In this document: piece by piece, positions 1 to 11,124 of the stretch
Layout of the letters: each line of letters begins with the position of its first letter
Position numbering within the stretch: the first letter of the stretch is position 1
Assembly: GCA_003133025.1 (NCBI GenBank)
Contig: PKZK01000048.1
Coordinates: 1-12,043 of the forward strand
From: Vulcanimicrobiota bacterium
GTDB lineage: Bacteria; Vulcanimicrobiota; Vulcanimicrobiia; Vulcanimicrobiales; Vulcanimicrobiaceae
Length of the DNA stretch: 12,043 nt
Reading direction: 5' to 3'
The notes under the pieces: model-generated
Told to the model about the DNA's origin: nothing
Database searches by the model: none
The model's input: the letters and a program-made list of their open reading frames with translations, nothing else
Program-made: the position numbers and the translations under genes

Positions 1-99
1 GAAGCAAAAAAACTTCGATTTTCTGGAGGACGGTGCAACGCTCTGCGTAAATCCCTCAGTTTAGCAGAAGTTTTTTGGTTCTTTTTTTCAAAAAAGAAC
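1..99. repeat. AT-rich intergenic palindromic repeat (partial, cut by the window start), resembling Acetobacteraceae repeats
   Basis: gaagcaaaaaaacttc (1-16) is an imperfect inverted copy of gaagttttttggttc (67-81). gttctttttt (78-87) and aaaaaagaac (90-99) form a perfect inverted repeat. The Acetobacteraceae resemblance is from recall, not from a search. Confidence 0.6.
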
Positions 100-107
100 G
101 CCTTGCT

Positions 108-215
108 TAGAGTGCGATGACAACGGGTCGAACCATGAAATGGTCCGACCTGATGTCTGAATCGCCCTCTTAGATTATTTTTAGAGGCGGATTCAGAATA
201 TGTCATCCGGCTCTA
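108..215. repeat. ~108-bp CIR/Bru-RS-like alphaproteobacterial intergenic repeat (MITE-like)
   Basis: Terminal inverted repeats tagagtgcgatgaca (108-122) / tgtcatccggctcta (201-215), 12/15 match. Internal hairpins at 126-136/140-150 (10/11) and 156-170/183-197 (13/15). Two GANTC sites (159-163, 190-194) lie in the arms of the second hairpin. Confidence 0.65.
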
Positions 216-218
216 GGG

Positions 219-296
219 TCATTTCGCCAGACCCAGGCGCGGCATCTCGATGGCCGGGCAACGGTCCATGACCACGGCGATCCCGGCGTTGCGCGC
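219..296 (-). pseudogene. yccU: 3' fragment of a YccU-like CoA-binding protein gene, in frame with the GT2
   Basis: The translation ARNAGIAVVMDRCPAIEMPRLGLAK* closely matches the recalled E. coli YccU C-terminus ARDAGLNVVMDRCPAIEIPRLGLAK*. Confidence 0.8.
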
Positions 297-1547
297 CGCC
301 GACACGCCCGCGTTCGACTGTGCGATCACGCGCACGCCGGCCGCTTCGGCCACGGCACGGGTACCGTCCGTCGACCCGTCGTCGACGACGATGATCTCCG
401 TGGGCGCAAGGGTCTGCGCGCGCACCGACTCGATCGCCGCAGCGAGATAGCGCTCGACGTTGAAGGCCGGGATGACCACGCTGACCGGCGCGCGCGGCTC
501 GGAAACTTGCTCCACGACGTTTGCGTCGGCCTTCTGTTGCGCGCGCTTCGTGCGACGCCGCAGCGCTCGCGCCGCGTCGAACACCGCACGTCCCGCCGGA
601 AGCGCCGCCGCACGCGTCGCACCGTAGAGCGCGAACGTCGTTAGGTTAAAGCGTCGCGAGAGCGCCTCCTCGAGATCGCGGCGAGCGGCATCATAGCCGC
701 CGCAGCGGAACGACTCGAATGCGGCGACGCGCTCGTGAAAGGGCCGCAGCCGGGCAAACTCTTTGGGGCACTGCGGCGAGTAACGTTCGGGCGCGACCGA
801 GGTCAGCTCGCCCAGCCGCACGATGCCGCGCGCTTGACGGCGGCGGTCGGCCGAACGGCTGTCGTGGTGCGCCACGTACGACGAGAGCACGCGCTCCACC
901 ACGAGCACGTCGCTGTAACGCAGCGCGCGTAGCAACCACTCGAGGTCTTCCGCAACCAGCGCGTCGTCGTTCTCGGGCAGATGCTCGTCGTAGAAGAGTC
1001 CGTGATCGAGCAGCCAATCGCGATCGAGCAGCAGCGTCGAGGTGCTCACGAAGTTACGGCGCACCACGAGGCGCTCCATCACCGCGCGCTCGACCCGCAC
1101 CACGCCCTCGGCCAGGGTCTTTGCGGGCGCGCGGCGGTAATGCCTAACGTTGTGCAGCGCGGAGGGCTCGCCGCGCCCGTTTGGACGCGCGATCTCGTAG
1201 TCGGAAAACGAGAGGCGAACGTCCGGAGCGCGCGCGAGCGCATCCCAATGCACGGCCAACCGGCCGCTGGTCCACGTATCGTCGGCGTCGAGCAGCGCAA
1301 TCCAAGGTTCTTGCGCCGCCCGAATGCCCGCGTTGCGCGCCGCGGCGACGCCGCGATTGGTTTGCGTCAGGACGGTGGCGCCCAAGCTGCGCGCGATGTC
1401 GCCCGTGCCGTCGGTCGAGCCGTCGTCGACGACGATGACTTCGGCCGGCTGCCGCGTTTGCGCGGCCACGTCGGCCAATGCTCTGCCGATGTGGGCGGCG
1501 GCCTGGTACGCGGGAATGACCACCGAGATCGGCAGCTTCTCCGTCAC
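219..1547 (-). CDS. Family 2 glycosyltransferase: one complete GT2 domain plus a truncated second GT2 domain fused to a foreign C-terminus
   Basis: Domain 1 has ISVVIPAY, VIVVDDGSTDGT, GVAAARNAGI and IALLDADD (DxD). The second copy has VSVVIPAFN, IIVVDDGSTDGT and GVSAARNAGI but ends before its DxD. GTG start 1 nt after the upstream stop, preceded by GGAG. Confidence 0.88.
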   Translation of the reverse strand: MTEKLPISVVIPAYQAAAHIGRALADVAAQTRQPAEVIVVDDGSTDGTGDIARSLGATVLTQTNRGVAAARNAGIRAAQEPWIALLDADDTWTSGRLAVHWDALARAPDVRLSFSDYEIARPNGRGEPSALHNVRHYRRAPAKTLAEGVVRVERAVMERLVVRRNFVSTSTLLLDRDWLLDHGLFYDEHLPENDDALVAEDLEWLLRALRYSDVLVVERVLSSYVAHHDSRSADRRRQARGIVRLGELTSVAPERYSPQCPKEFARLRPFHERVAAFESFRCGGYDAARRDLEEALSRRFNLTTFALYGATRAAALPAGRAVFDAARALRRRTKRAQQKADANVVEQVSEPRAPVSVVIPAFNVERYLAAAIESVRAQTLAPTEIIVVDDGSTDGTRAVAEAAGVRVIAQSNAGVSAARNAGIAVVMDRCPAIEMPRLGLAK

Positions 1548-1548
1548 G

Positions 1549-2970
1549 TCACGCGCTCCGTGCAGGCACGAATCCCGGACGCACCAGTCGCCGCGCGAAC
1601 GCGCGCTCCGGCCGCTCGAGATTCAAGATCAGGAAGGGCAGAGAGAGCCCGAGCCACACGAACTTCAACCACATCGGATCGATGAACATCGACTGGACCG
1701 CCAATCCGACGATCGCCGCCTCGGCGGCCATGCGGAAACCGAAGTTCTGACTGCTGCGCGGGATGACGCGCAGGGAGCGGAAGCTCATGAACCAGGCCGC
1801 GAGCAGCAAGCCCAGGCCGATGATGCCGAGTTCGACGGACATGCCCACCAGGACGTTGTGCGCCGGGCGCGTCCAACCCTGACCCGAGCGTTGATATGCC
1901 AGGAGATACACCCGTGCGTAAATCTCTTGGAACGTCCCGATGCCCGAACCGAAGAGCCAGTGGCCGCGCAAAGCCTGCAGACCCACTTGCCAGATCAACG
2001 TCCGGCCGCTGCCCGTGCCGCCGCCGTCGTCGTGCAAGAAGCGCTCCCACACCAGCGGGTAGCGGAAGAGCAAAGCGACGAAACCCGCGACCATCAGCCC
2101 CACCTGGGTCAGGCTTCGGCTACGAACGGCGAAATAGGCGAACATCAAGCCCAAGGCGATGAATGCGCCGCGCGAGCCCGAGACGATCACGCCGAGCATC
2201 AGCGCAGCCGTAGCCGCCCAGCAGACGACCCTCAACCATAAGCGCTTCGTGACGACCGAGACCGAGAACGCGAAGGCCAGCGGCACGATGAAGCTCGTTG
2301 CGAAGAAGTTCTGGTCGACCACGTTTCCGTTGCCGCCGACGATCGAGAGACGGCTGCTGCCGCCGCCGAGTCCGCCGTTCGCGATCACGGCGTAGGCCAC
2401 GCTCGCGACGCCGGCGCCGACCATGATCGCAACGATCGTCTTGAAGTCGCGCCGCGTGATCGGATACATGGCGAGCACGGTCATCAGGCCGAAATTCTGC
2501 GCCAGGATGCCGTAGATGAGCCGGCCGTGATCGAAATCGAGCGACCAAAACATCGTCAAGCCGCACCACGCGATAAATGAAAGCCAGACGTACCAGGCGG
2601 GCCGCAAACGCAACATGTGGCGCGTCAACAGCATCCGCGTCACGAGCGCCACGACGGTCAGAATGCCCAGCACGCGCAGCAGCGTCGCGCCGCTCGTCAC
2701 CGAGAGCAACGGGTCGAACGGCATCAACGCGAGGAACAGCCCAAACGGGAAGATGATCGGTGCGCGCAAGAGCGCGAAGAGCGCGATCGGCGCGACGGCC
2801 AGCGCGAGTCCGAATTTCGGAAGGTGGAAGCCCGACGGCCCGCTCGCTCCGGCGACGGACTTGGCCACCACGAGTACGTAGAGCGCGATGCCCACGGCGA
2901 GCGCCGCCTTCGTCCAGAAGCCGCGCCGGTTGCCGGCAGGGCTCGCGAGCATCCTTGCCTGCGCGTACAT
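1549..2970 (-). CDS. O-antigen ligase family / Wzy-like polysaccharide polymerase (Wzy_C domain)
   Basis: Many hydrophobic segments; motifs DQNFFA, SGSRGA, GSGRTLIW, GSGIGTF and AHNVLV...ELGIIGL. Start chosen at ATG 2970, which overlaps the upstream stop (TGATG). Confidence 0.85.
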   Translation of the reverse strand: MYAQARMLASPAGNRRGFWTKAALAVGIALYVLVVAKSVAGASGPSGFHLPKFGLALAVAPIALFALLRAPIIFPFGLFLALMPFDPLLSVTSGATLLRVLGILTVVALVTRMLLTRHMLRLRPAWYVWLSFIAWCGLTMFWSLDFDHGRLIYGILAQNFGLMTVLAMYPITRRDFKTIVAIMVGAGVASVAYAVIANGGLGGGSSRLSIVGGNGNVVDQNFFATSFIVPLAFAFSVSVVTKRLWLRVVCWAATAALMLGVIVSGSRGAFIALGLMFAYFAVRSRSLTQVGLMVAGFVALLFRYPLVWERFLHDDGGGTGSGRTLIWQVGLQALRGHWLFGSGIGTFQEIYARVYLLAYQRSGQGWTRPAHNVLVGMSVELGIIGLGLLLAAWFMSFRSLRVIPRSSQNFGFRMAAEAAIVGLAVQSMFIDPMWLKFVWLGLSLPFLILNLERPERAFARRLVRPGFVPARSA

Positions 2971-3326
2971 CAGATGACCGAAAGCGCTCGGCGCAGGTCC
3001 GATATGAGGTGTTCTTCGCCGGCCCGCTTCGAGATGACGGCGCTCGCGCCCGAGACGTAGCACGAGGCCGCGTACGAAGGATCTTCGGACGCGGAATACG
3101 CGATCAGCGCGGCGTCGGGCGTGGCCTGGCGAATGCGGCAGAGCGCATTGGGACCACCGCGCTCGAAGAAGTCGACATCGACGAAAACGGCTGCGGGCGC
3201 GTGCGCCGCGATATCCTTACCGTCGATCACTTGGCTCGTCGCCACCACTTGCAATCCGGCGCCGTCGAGGCAACGCAAGAGGAAGTCGGTGAAGATGCGC
3301 TGCGGTTCGATGACATACGTGCGCAT
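2970..3326 (-). CDS. Stand-alone atypical receiver (REC) domain protein, 118 aa
   Basis: REC pattern TYVIEP / AVFVDVD / LIAYS / AVISK with no output domain. ATG 3326 is preceded by GGGGG. Confidence 0.8.
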   Translation of the reverse strand: MRTYVIEPQRIFTDFLLRCLDGAGLQVVATSQVIDGKDIAAHAPAAVFVDVDFFERGGPNALCRIRQATPDAALIAYSASEDPSYAASCYVSGASAVISKRAGEEHLISDLRRALSVI

Positions 3327-3339
3327 CAATGCCCCCGCA

Positions 3340-3984
3340 TCAGCGGACCAAACCGTGACGCACGGCGTAGACCGCGACACCGGAGCGGGCATTGACCTTC
3401 AACTTGGCCAGAATGTGGCTGACGTGGTTCTTGACGGTCTTCTCGGAGAGCGTCAGGCGCTTGCCGATGTCGCGGTTGGAGAGCCCGTCGGCGATGAGTC
3501 GCGCGATCTCGTGCTCGCGCGAGGAAAGTTCGCTCGGTTCCGGCGGACGCGCTGCGCGGCGACGTAGCATGGAACCGGCGATGCGCGGGTCGGCGTACGA
3601 GTCGCCGTTGGCCACCAGATGAACCAGTTCGATGAACGCCGCGGGCGAGGTGTCTTTGGCGACGTAGGCGTCGGCCTTGGCCGCGAGCGCGCGTTGCATC
3701 GCGCCGGGCCGGTGTTGCGCCGAGACCACGCAAATCCGGCTCTGCGGCGATACTTTTTCGCAAGCGGACAGTGCCGCTTCGATGTCGACTTCGAGTTCGT
3801 CGGCGTCGATGAAGATCAGGTCCGGCCGCAGCCGCCCGAGTTCGGCCGAACCCGGTGCGTCGGAGCGGCCGATCACGCGGATCTGCGGGTCGCGCTCGAG
3901 CAACATGGCTAGCGCTTCGGCGGCGAGCACGCGCGGTTGAACCAGGAAGACGCGGATGGTCCGCTTCCGGAGCAGCACGGTCAC
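3340..3984 (-). CDS. NarL/FixJ-family response regulator (atypical REC plus LuxR HTH)
   Basis: REC motifs DLIFID, ICVVS and AYVAK; HTH LSSREHEIARLIADGLSNRDIGKRLTLSEKTVKNHVSHILAKL. Confidence 0.93.
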   Translation of the reverse strand: MTVLLRKRTIRVFLVQPRVLAAEALAMLLERDPQIRVIGRSDAPGSAELGRLRPDLIFIDADELEVDIEAALSACEKVSPQSRICVVSAQHRPGAMQRALAAKADAYVAKDTSPAAFIELVHLVANGDSYADPRIAGSMLRRRAARPPEPSELSSREHEIARLIADGLSNRDIGKRLTLSEKTVKNHVSHILAKLKVNARSGVAVYAVRHGLVR

Positions 3985-3990
3985 CGGACT

Positions 3991-6162
3991 CTATGCTCCC
4001 GACAGTTCGACGGGTTGTGCGTCCGTGGTGCGGCCGTGATAGATCGACCGGCTGTCGGGCTTGGCGCCGTTGAGCACCGCGCCGAGCAGATTGACGGGTC
4101 CCAGTGCGAAGAGCTTGGAGAGCGCGGTCTGCACCGAACGCGCGTCGGAATGTTGTGCCGAGATGACCATCACGGCTCCGTCGGCCTGGCGTGCCAGCAC
4201 GGCACCGTCGACGATCGAGCGCAGCGCCGGCGTATCGATGATGATCGCGTCGAAGCGCTCCGCGGCCTTGGTGAGCACGCGCCGGAAGCCTTCGCCCTGC
4301 AACAGACCCACCGGGTTCGGCGCGGGTTTACCCGCGGTCAAAACCCACACGTTCTGGTGCCGCGTGCCCTGCACGGCCTCTTCGAACCGCGCCATGCCCA
4401 CGAGCACGTCGGAGAGGCCGCGCTCGTTGGAGACGTTGAGCTTCTCGTGTACCGCCGGGCGGCGTAGATCCGCATCGACGATCAGCACGCGGCCGCGCAT
4501 CAAGCCCATGCTGATCGCGGTGTTCACCGCAACGGTCGACTTGCCGTCACCCTGTTCGGGGCTCACGAAGGCGATCGAACGCGACGGTTTGTCGGACGAA
4601 TAGCGCAGTGCCGCAACGAGTTGATAGAAGGCTTCAACCGAGAGCGGCTTCACCCACTGATTCACGCGCCAATCCGTCGCGTCGATCTGCGGGACGGTTG
4701 CGAGCACGGGCAAGCCCAAGCGGTCGCGCACGTCGTCCTCCGTGCGAAAGCGGCTGTCGAGGAAATCGGCGCCGAGCGCGGCCATGAGTGCGAGGAAGAG
4801 TCCGACGATCGCGCCCAGCACGACGTTGACCGAAAGGTTCGGCGAGACCGAAGCCACGTTCGGGTCGGCGGCTTGCGTGATGGTCACGTCCGAGAGCGCG
4901 GTGGTGCGCGCGATGATCGCTTCCTGATACTTGCGCGAGAGCGCGTCGTAGACGGCTTCGGCAGTCTTCGACTCACGCTCCAGGTCGCCGATGCGGCGCG
5001 CCTGATCGGGCAGCTTGTCCAGTCGCGGGCGGAGCGCATCGCGCTGCTGGCGCAGCGTGGCCACTTGCGCCGTTGCGCCCGAGGCCGTCGACTCCAGCGT
5101 GCTGACCTGTTGCTCGAGCGCTTCGTACGTGGGGTTCGGAATCGTCGACGAACCGGCCCCGACCTGGGCGGGCTGTCCCTTGAGCTCGCGTTGAGCGGCA
5201 GCGAGTTGGTTGCGCAGGTTGATGACGGTGGGATGCGCGTCGGTATACTGGTGGCGCGCCGAGTCGAGTTGACCTTGCAGCGTCGCGACCTGTTGCTCGA
5301 TCTGGGCGCGGACCGGATTGGCGCTCACGTTCTCTTGGCCGGTGATGGTCGCGGGCGTTGAGGCCAACTGCCCGCGAACGACGCCGAGCTGCGCTTCGGC
5401 TTGATCGGCTTCGAGTTGGGCCTGCTGCTCTTTCGCCTCGAGCGCCGCCAGGCTGTCGATGTCGGACTTGGTCTGCGAAGGCAAATCGGCGATGCCCGTG
5501 CGCACCTGATAGGCCGCAAGCGCCGATTGCGTCGCCTGCATGCGGTGCTGAGCTTCGGGCAACTGCTGATCCAAGAAACCAATGGCCGTCTCAGCTTGCT
5601 GAGAAACCAAATGACGCTCGCGTTCGACGAAGACGCCCGCGTACGTGTTCGCGATCTGTGCGGAGAGCTGCGGATCGGTCCAGGCGACCTTGAGGCTCAG
5701 GATCGAGGTATCGGTCACCGGACGCACGATCACGTGGCTCAGCAGCGATCCGACGGAAGCGTGCAACTTCAGGCGGTCGATGACGTCCTGCGCCACCGGC
5801 GATTGCTGCAGCAACTCGGCGTAGGTTTCGGGCGTCTTGCCGCCTCCGGAAGCCAGCAGCGCGTTGAGGATCGGCAGTGCGCTCGAGTCGCCGGTGCTTC
5901 CCGACTGGTCCGAACTCCCGCCAAATCCGGCGATCAATTTTACTTCGGTGGTGTACTGCTTGTGCTGCAGGAGCGTGAACACGATGACCGCGCCGAGAAA
6001 ACCGCCGAAGACGGCGAGCATGAGCTTGCGGCGGCGCACCAGCGTCGCCCAGACGCGGCCGAAGTCGACGTCGCGCGGCTCGTCGGGCGGCACGCCGAGC
6101 GAAGGCGGCGGCGCAGCGGTGGCGGGTGGACGCGCGAAGCCGCGTTGGTATCGATCGAGCAT
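3991..6162 (-). CDS. wzc: Polysaccharide copolymerase / BY-kinase (Wzc/GumC-like)
   Basis: Two TM segments flank a long coiled-coil region. Walker A SPEQGDGKST, A' VLIVDADLRRP, Walker B IIIDTP, C-terminal LLGAVLN. Confidence 0.92.
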   Translation of the reverse strand: MLDRYQRGFARPPATAAPPPSLGVPPDEPRDVDFGRVWATLVRRRKLMLAVFGGFLGAVIVFTLLQHKQYTTEVKLIAGFGGSSDQSGSTGDSSALPILNALLASGGGKTPETYAELLQQSPVAQDVIDRLKLHASVGSLLSHVIVRPVTDTSILSLKVAWTDPQLSAQIANTYAGVFVERERHLVSQQAETAIGFLDQQLPEAQHRMQATQSALAAYQVRTGIADLPSQTKSDIDSLAALEAKEQQAQLEADQAEAQLGVVRGQLASTPATITGQENVSANPVRAQIEQQVATLQGQLDSARHQYTDAHPTVINLRNQLAAAQRELKGQPAQVGAGSSTIPNPTYEALEQQVSTLESTASGATAQVATLRQQRDALRPRLDKLPDQARRIGDLERESKTAEAVYDALSRKYQEAIIARTTALSDVTITQAADPNVASVSPNLSVNVVLGAIVGLFLALMAALGADFLDSRFRTEDDVRDRLGLPVLATVPQIDATDWRVNQWVKPLSVEAFYQLVAALRYSSDKPSRSIAFVSPEQGDGKSTVAVNTAISMGLMRGRVLIVDADLRRPAVHEKLNVSNERGLSDVLVGMARFEEAVQGTRHQNVWVLTAGKPAPNPVGLLQGEGFRRVLTKAAERFDAIIIDTPALRSIVDGAVLARQADGAVMVISAQHSDARSVQTALSKLFALGPVNLLGAVLNGAKPDSRSIYHGRTTDAQPVELSGA

Positions 6163-9583: not shown

Positions 9584-10933
9584 CTACCGAAAGAGCACGA
9601 ACCCCGAAGCTGCCGGCAACGTGGCCGGCGCCGCCGGCCCGTCAAAGTCGAGCGAGCCGGTGTCGCCATAGCAGGCGCACAGGCCGTCGCCCGAGATGCG
9701 GAGCGAGTGGGCGTACGTCCCGTGCAACTCGGGCAGCGGGACCGAGCGCTCGGGTTCCGGATTGACGACCGTCGCGCATGGCCCGACCGGCTTCCCGGCG
9801 TCGTAGCAGGCCGCGAACTCACGCACGAACGCCCCGCCCGCGGCCGCGACGTCGCGGACATCCTTCGGATAGGGCCGCAGCGGACGGTAGAACGTCAAGG
9901 CCGCCTCGGGGCACACCTGGATGTGTGAGCGTTCGCCGCACGCCGCGTACCAGAACCAGGTTCGATCGGCTTCGTAGAACAGCATGACGTCGGCCAGCGC
10001 TCGCCGGCGCGCGGCGGGATCGGTCACCGCGAAGTCGACGAGCACGACGTTCTTGCCGGCACCGGTGACGTGCATGATGCCGTCGAGCCGGGTGCGCAAC
10101 ACCGGTCCCGACCAGAGATACTTGTTCTTCGGAACCGGCGAGTTGCCGTAGAAACAACCGTCGCACGCGGCACCCCAAACGTGCGCATCGGTCGCGATGA
10201 GGCGCGTCTCCGGCGAAGGCACGTGCGCCGCATCGCTCGCGAGCCCGCCGTTGAGCAGGACGGGCCGCGGCACCGCGTCGATGAGTTGCCGCATTCCGGC
10301 GACCCAGGCCGCTGCTCCGCCGTCGACGGGCGGCCTCGCGCGACCGCCAGGCGCGCCCTCGCAGGGTCCCGTGCCCTTCTCGAAGCTCGGCGCGCCCCAA
10401 CACATGTCGGCGTAAAAGTCGTCCGGCGGCGTCGCGTCGTCCAGATAGATCAGGGTGTCGTCGTGCGCGTGCAACGCGCCATCGATTGCTGCGAGCGCGA
10501 GCGCGCGCATCTGGGGCGACGACGGGTCGCCGAAGCGCTGCCAAATGCCGCCCGACTTCGTCGACAGCGGCCGTTCCGGATGACCCGGTTGCGCGTAGAA
10601 GGCGCCTTCGGGCCACGCCGAGCAGTCCGGAAACGGATAGTCGTTCTTGCCCGGTCCCGTGAGATTAGAGCATAGGTTCACATCGAGGTACCGCGCCGTT
10701 TTCATCGTCGCGGGCACCTGCGCCGTGCGTGGGGCCACCAAGAGGTCGACGTAGGGTGCAAGCGCCGTCCAGTTGCCGGCGCCGAAGGTCGCGTTGTAGG
10801 CTGCGGCCCCGTCGTTCGGAGCCACCACCGTCAACGAGTGATCGCGCGGAACCGTATCCGGCGGCGATCCGGCTCCGAGCGTGCAAACCAAAGCGAGTCC
10901 GGGTAACGTTACCCGAAGTGTGATGCAGTTCAC
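9584..10933 (-). CDS. Secreted cysteine-rich protein, putative glycoside hydrolase-like (GHL15/GH114-like TIM barrel)
   Basis: Signal-like N-terminus from GTG 10933 (start uncertain; the ORF is open to 11020). GDPSSPQMR...IYLDD and FVREF...VVNP resemble GH-like barrel families. 12 Cys lie in the predicted mature part. Confidence 0.55.
   Translation of the reverse strand: MNCITLRVTLPGLALVCTLGAGSPPDTVPRDHSLTVVAPNDGAAAYNATFGAGNWTALAPYVDLLVAPRTAQVPATMKTARYLDVNLCSNLTGPGKNDYPFPDCSAWPEGAFYAQPGHPERPLSTKSGGIWQRFGDPSSPQMRALALAAIDGALHAHDDTLIYLDDATPPDDFYADMCWGAPSFEKGTGPCEGAPGGRARPPVDGGAAAWVAGMRQLIDAVPRPVLLNGGLASDAAHVPSPETRLIATDAHVWGAACDGCFYGNSPVPKNKYLWSGPVLRTRLDGIMHVTGAGKNVVLVDFAVTDPAARRRALADVMLFYEADRTWFWYAACGERSHIQVCPEAALTFYRPLRPYPKDVRDVAAAGGAFVREFAACYDAGKPVGPCATVVNPEPERSVPLPELHGTYAHSLRISGDGLCACYGDTGSLDFDGPAAPATLPAASGFVLFR
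10900..10915. promoter_or_regulatory. Perfect 16-bp palindrome, LacI-family operator-like
   Basis: CGGGTAACGTTACCCG is its own reverse complement; the central AACGTT is typical of LacI/GalR operators. Confidence 0.4.
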
Positions 10934-10934
10934 A
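10919..10934. promoter_or_regulatory. CRP/FNR-family binding site (perfect CRP consensus)
   Basis: TGTGA-tgcagt-TCACA, 10/10 match to TGTGA-N6-TCACA. Confidence 0.6.
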
Positions 10935-11124
10935 ACGTGACCCAGCGCACCATGAAGAAACTCCCCTTGCGTCCTACGTCTCTGCTTCATGAGGGCCGAT
11001 GACGGAAGTACATGGTCCATGCAGTTACCACGCTGCCGTCAGCGTTGGTCCCACTCGTCCAGCACCTCGAACGTGAAAGGCGCATGCTCGTTTTACCGGT
11101 CGTGAAGCCCTCGCCGCTCCGAAA

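Follow-up and report, generated by a model that had tools for sequence, protein, structure and literature searches.

Short-read metagenome assembly can place the reads of two genomes in one contig, and the interspecies chimeric contigs described in PMC7881036 resemble the present junction in that respect, in low contig depth (approximately 2.8 and 6.8 for the contigs of run X1, which lends weak support) and in a short common word near a contig end. The present case differs from those described there in that the word lies in two unrelated protein-coding genes and in the same frame of both, and the product could be taken for a clean fusion of two genes. On one side of the join, the closest described genes are the GT2 glycosyltransferases (PF00535) of Wzy-dependent polysaccharide loci; the true host gene likewise carries two PF00535 stretches, each followed by LLDADD, and is flanked by a wzy-like gene on one side and a membrane-protein gene on the other, a Polysacc_synt_3 gene lying farther along, but its two GT2 units form a single, fused 682-aa open reading frame (ORF), whereas the relative G014 has two adjacent genes. 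On the other side, the nearest family is YccU/CoA_binding_2 (PF13380; PDB entries 2DUW and 1IUK), to which the last 25 residues of the tail are tied by a match to the C terminus of 2DUW and, at the DNA level, by a match to E. coli yccU; in contrast to members of that family, only about 20 of the 116 profile positions are present, as a fragment of another organism's gene and not as a domain of the window protein.

The window, by which we mean the whole stretch of 12,043 nucleotides analyzed, comprises bases 1 to 12,043 of contig C53 (17,251 b) in a metagenome-assembled genome (MAG) of 265 contigs and 3.35 Mb, with a GC content of 66.5%, a completeness of 80%, and a contamination score of 0.47%. 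As the window begins at base 1 of C53, the junction lies approximately 280 bases from a contig end. The remainder of the window is a polysaccharide locus in which two group-1 glycosyltransferases are confirmed by Pfam and other ORFs, labeled from reading their translations, are putatively wzc-like, wza-like, and response-regulator genes. The ORF at 219 to 1547 on the minus strand encodes 442 aa with two GT2 N termini and matches the GT2 profile PF00535 above the cutoff (E = 8e-54). Its second GT2 unit breaks off at GVSAARNAGIA and then continues in frame as VVMDRCPAIEMPRLGLAK to the stop codon; the DxD motif of that unit is missing. A preliminary description of this DNA had noted both the in-frame switch to a YccU C terminus and the loss of the second GT2 unit before its DxD, and both are real in the sequence: LLDADD is lacking in the window form and present in the intact forms described below. 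Residues 2 to 26 of the translation of positions 222 to 299 match residues 113 to 137, the C terminus, of 2DUW, a putative CoA-binding protein (E = 2.1e-9), with the conserved C-terminal segment V-x-D-R-C of YccU/CoA_binding_2 retained; the resemblance of the tail exceeds what chance would give. At the DNA level, the tail shows 85.5% identity over 55 nt to an E. coli gene that carries the annotation yccU (in 1 of 5,426 genomes at that sensitivity) and also matches genes of a plasmid collection, 3 of the 6 matches being annotated as CoA-binding protein. The match to CoA_binding_2 proposed as a check on the tail was present (E = 0.007) but did not reach the curated cutoff for the whole domain (17.3 to 18.4 bits versus 22.8 bits), as expected of a 20-residue piece; it spans only profile positions 90/96 to 115 of 116. 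The coordinates of the features are collected in Table 1.

Table 1. Features at the junction and its surroundings (window coordinates; a dot marks features without strand)
Feature	Positions	Strand	Evidence or remark
Foreign segment from a second organism, likely Acetobacterales	1..274	.	Absent from relatives; no copy in the MAG; separate X1 contig over 83-301
AT-rich high-copy intergenic repeat, Acetobacterales type	57..110	.	Matches in G041 and G045
Inverted repeat, 15-nt arms and 12-nt loop, just past the donor stop codon	156..197	.	Repeat search; fold of -19.3 kcal/mol, z = -2.8
Donor-only 3' end of a yccU-type CoA-binding gene (..VMDRCPAIEMPRLGLAK and stop)	219..274	-	2DUW match; E. coli yccU DNA match; MDRCPAIEMPRLG motif in 35 species genomes
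Join: 27-nt word common to both parents, AARNAGIA in the same frame in both genes	275..301	-	Contig divergence points in runs X1, X2, X5, and X8
First 424 codons of the host 682-aa GT2-GT2 glycosyltransferase	276..1547	-	Remainder: 35-nt unassembled gap plus C174:1-738
Wzy/O-antigen ligase-family (Wzy_C) gene	1549..2970	-	PF04932, E = 8e-14; upstream of the GT2 ORF; same gene order in relative G014

The host gene continues elsewhere in the same MAG. A search with an exact 41-base pattern taken from the right of the common word retrieved two metagenome contigs, L018 and L019, which agree with C53 from position 275 onward without a mismatch over 963 and 3,217 b, respectively, and which align with contig C174 of the MAG from its base 1 at 99.9%. 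Between C53:275 and C174:1, both metagenome contigs hold 35 nt that are absent from the MAG. Window positions 219 to 274, on the other hand, match L018 and L019 at just 18 of 56 bases. The ORF at 2796 to 4844 on the minus strand of L019 encodes 682 aa with two PF00535 matches (E = 4.9e-64); its second GT2 stretch reads ..ARNAGIAAATQPWIALLDADD.., and the DxD motif is present in the second unit, as LLDADD, in L018, L019, and 9 cluster members of a protein collection. In that collection, the 442-aa form is found on one contig alone, the window's own (17,251 b), whereas seven 682-aa variants occur on 17 contigs; with two partial proteins that likewise span the junction in intact form, there are 19 intact junction-spanning records against 1 joined record, although these records may not all be independent samples. 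Across the junction, 9 of the 11 cluster members have AATQPWIALLDADD, 1 stops short of it, and 1 is the window's own protein. The earlier suggestion that the operon is truncated does not hold for the species, in which the 682-aa gene is intact, and the 442-aa form with this tail did not recur among the four runs, the two metagenome contigs, and the protein records. The fused frame of paralogous GT2 units is seen in X1, X2, L019, and seven cluster sequences, while G014, whose gene order is the same, has the corresponding units as two separate neighboring genes, at L004:1486-2529 and in the ORF that follows.

The two parents of the joined form are found apart in metagenome runs. The runs are assembled contigs, which drop rare variants; all are from peat or moss, possibly from few sites, and they may include the source sample (X1) and overlap with L018 and L019. 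Part of the first 1,500 positions of the window was present in 20 of the 24 runs listed, and the top runs mostly carried approximately 0.8 of the words of this stretch, a value equal to the share to the right of position 275, with X1 carrying 0.94. The GT2 parent is represented in X1 by a 535-b contig identical to positions 275 to 723, with 86 unlike letters to the left of 275, and in X2 by a 1,185-b contig identical to positions 275 to 1356, with 103 unlike letters to the left of 275. When positions 198 to 352 were compared with four runs (X1, X2, X5, and X8, under four study codes), all four gave a contig identical to 275 to 352, with the same loose end to the left of 275 in each, continuing as the GT2 gene's own sequence; none of the four held a contig bridging the joined form. 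In the comparison over positions 1 to 1500, runs X3 and X7, covered in part, gave no close contig at the junction. The joined form was absent from both metagenome contigs (0 of 2). Because assembled contigs drop rare variants, the absence of the joined form is not thereby proven. The second parent is a 324-b contig of X1 that corresponds to positions 83 to 301 with 2 differences and continues with 97 unlike letters to the right of 301 as yccU; translation by hand of the nearest 30 of these loose letters gives LGVVNEAAA, which lines up with yccU homologues, L046 among them (WMQLGVVNEAAAAAARAAGIEVVMDRC). Other joints listed over positions 1 to 1500, with sides of 21 to 32 letters, were set aside as GT2 genes of other organisms, the repeat and generic GT2 motifs having crowded that comparison.

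Since the host contigs of X1, X2, X5, and X8 diverge to the left of 275 and the donor contig of X1 diverges to the right of 301, positions 275 to 301 are the overlap of two different genes. The preliminary description had thus been right that ARNAGI is a word common to both proteins, but the overlap is wider than the interval of approximately 276 to 296 that it gave. One of the two differences of the donor contig is at 255; the other was returned without a position and, judging from the rule by which differences are listed, is probably near 301, for which reason the exact common word may be somewhat shorter than 27 nt. Both genes read the word in one and the same frame, as AARNAGIA, which is why the join leaves the reading frame unbroken. 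A search of the MAG gave no second copy of the 27-mer. The two parents, then, are separate contigs with the word as their overlap; the true length of the host gene is 682 aa, and the gene continues on C174 after a gap of 35 nt. With both parents separate, the gene intact in independent assemblies, and its missing half on C174, the chimera between two organisms that had been offered as one reading is supported.

The other reading that had been offered, a real microhomology-mediated recombination, would have brought DNA of an Acetobacterales neighbor into the GT2 gene of the sampled strain, truncating the second domain and altering the polysaccharide; were it true, the product would be a hybrid of two lineages, joined in frame, and one sugar-transfer step of the locus would be switched off. 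The kept frame and the near-perfect 27-nt overlap are compatible with such an event, as are the co-occurrence of donor and host in at least one run (X1) and the capacity of contigs to hide rare variants. We nevertheless regard it as very improbable. The same MAG has the rest of the gene, undamaged, at the beginning of C174, 35 nt away from the junction; the foreign piece is at a contig end and contains no mobile-element gene within its 274 bases; and the joined form, seen in 0 of 4 runs, in 0 of 2 metagenome contigs, and in a single protein record, its own, against 19 intact ones, did not recur in independent samples among the assembled runs, metagenome contigs, and protein records.

The foreign segment differs from the host in taxonomic origin, as judged from its absence from relatives, its repeat, and the tails of the relatives' own genes. 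Positions 1 to 274 have no match in any of 40 relatives and no second copy in the MAG. The GC content of positions 1 to 218 is 0.44, compared with 0.665 for the MAG, in which just 10 of 15,220 tiles of 218 b have a GC content no higher than this. The claim that the DNA beyond the junction becomes AT-richer is correct as regards this low GC content but not as regards its onset, which is at approximately position 200 and not at the junction (0.62 at 201 to 250 and 0.76 at 251 to 300). The repeats, which had been called alphaproteobacterial in style, are indeed so and point more narrowly to Acetobacterales: positions 1 to 274 gave 40 matches in G041, an Acidocella MAG, and 46 in G045, a MAG titled Rhodovastum atsumiense, nearly all of them at the repeat at 57 to 110, and both names belong to Acetobacterales. 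The repeat is abundant in 2 of 5 Acetobacterales genomes, with one repeat match in G043 and a match to the yccU tail only in G042 and G044, and was found in 0 of 5 other alphaproteobacterial genomes. It is approximately 45 nt long and AT-rich, has internal dyad symmetry (78 to 99), and is very abundant in the peat runs, in each of which hundreds of short contigs pile up at 51 to 110.

The tail is less discriminating. A tight degenerate pattern of it was found in no species genome, and a looser one recovered the MDRCPAIEMPRLG motif in 35, mostly Alphaproteobacteria; the best DNA match among these 35 loci is L040, from an Acetobacteraceae MAG, at 68 of 83 bases, and the next two, at 67 and 66, are from unclassified Alphaproteobacteria. 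The tail alone therefore does not fix the family of the donor. The donor itself was not found among these 35 genomes, and the window's repeats do not occur within 900 bases of the gene at any of the 35 loci. Given the abundance of the repeat in two Acetobacterales genomes and its absence from five other alphaproteobacterial ones, the donor is likely an Acetobacterales bacterium, an assignment that stops short of the species.

An origin of the tail within the host also had to be considered. The MAG holds no standalone PF13380 gene, and the donor gene was not found in it either, while most of the 40 relatives have a full-length PF13380 match; the host's own gene therefore had to be excluded as a source of the tail. 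By an intragenomic misjoin or rearrangement, the tail would be the end of the host's yccU gene, otherwise missing from an 80%-complete MAG, and the lack of a standalone gene where most relatives have one is what such an origin would predict. Against it, in all 29 of the relatives examined, a set from which the three unpublished genomes among the 40 (G018, G020, and G036) were left out, the standalone CoA-binding genes end in the tail of a different subfamily, which is longer (..DRC[ILM]KVE..GGL..) and agrees at 6 to 9 of 18 tail residues; the flanking DNA has a GC content of 44%, and its repeat, present in Acetobacterales genomes, has no other copy in the MAG and none in the 40 relatives. An intragenomic source is, in our judgment, scarcely credible. 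As an observation on the family, all 29 of the standalone host-lineage CoA-binding proteins examined (L064 to L092) share a lengthened C terminus (..GGL..G.NSG.I.SRRR), which differs from the ending of 2DUW and YccU.

We conclude that the junction is almost certainly an artefact, whether it was made in silico or in the library. Very probably, positions 1 to 274 are the end of a yccU-type gene and the downstream repeats of a second bacterium, misjoined in silico to the host GT2 gene by way of the 27-base word. The host path of the source assembly would have broken just past the word, at the 35 nt that the MAG lacks, whereupon a de Bruijn assembler run at short k may have extended C53 through the word along the only remaining path, into a low-depth neighbor; the extension would have ended 274 bases later, in repeat-rich DNA. 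Values of k of 21 to 27 are usual for common assemblers. A bench-made chimera, in which templates were switched at the 27-nt word during PCR or amplification and the assembler followed the one or few hybrid molecules that resulted, would have the same anatomy and be indistinguishable at the contig level, and chimeric reads are known to arise from template switches primed by microhomology. A single hybrid molecule, however, usually falls under the coverage filter of an assembler, and the join coincides exactly with a word whose length suffices for joining in a short-k graph, beside a gap in the host path; we consider a library origin improbable and an in silico origin of the misjoin likely.

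The hybrid is not a real feature and is without biological novelty, and the 442-aa protein is not expected in the cell. Its interest is in quality control: a public MAG with a contamination score of 0.47% holds 274 foreign bases, and the false 442-aa protein has already entered a protein collection, where it serves as a cluster representative. In-frame chimeras at conserved motifs can pass for new domain fusions, and contamination scores derived from marker genes miss them. Trimming C53:1-274 and joining C53 to C174 would restore one continuous polysaccharide locus.

Three further observations concern this locus. C174:1-3536, equivalent to L019:1-3536, continues it with a membrane-protein-like ORF of 548 aa, which has no Pfam match at E = 0.001, and with a convergent Polysacc_synt_3 (flippase-like) gene. 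Within the window, the ORF at 9584 to 11020 on the minus strand (478 aa) adjoins the glycosyltransferases and has no Pfam match above the cutoff (best E = 0.14); our guess would be that it possibly encodes a secreted protein acting on polysaccharide. Finally, P0011, a 682-aa variant present on 1 contig only, is the same as the others up to LLDADD and strongly divergent across the second half thereafter (residues 439 to 682); its switch point is the place where C174 begins (DD), and either a recombinant allele or a further chimera formed at a conserved GT2 motif could account for it.
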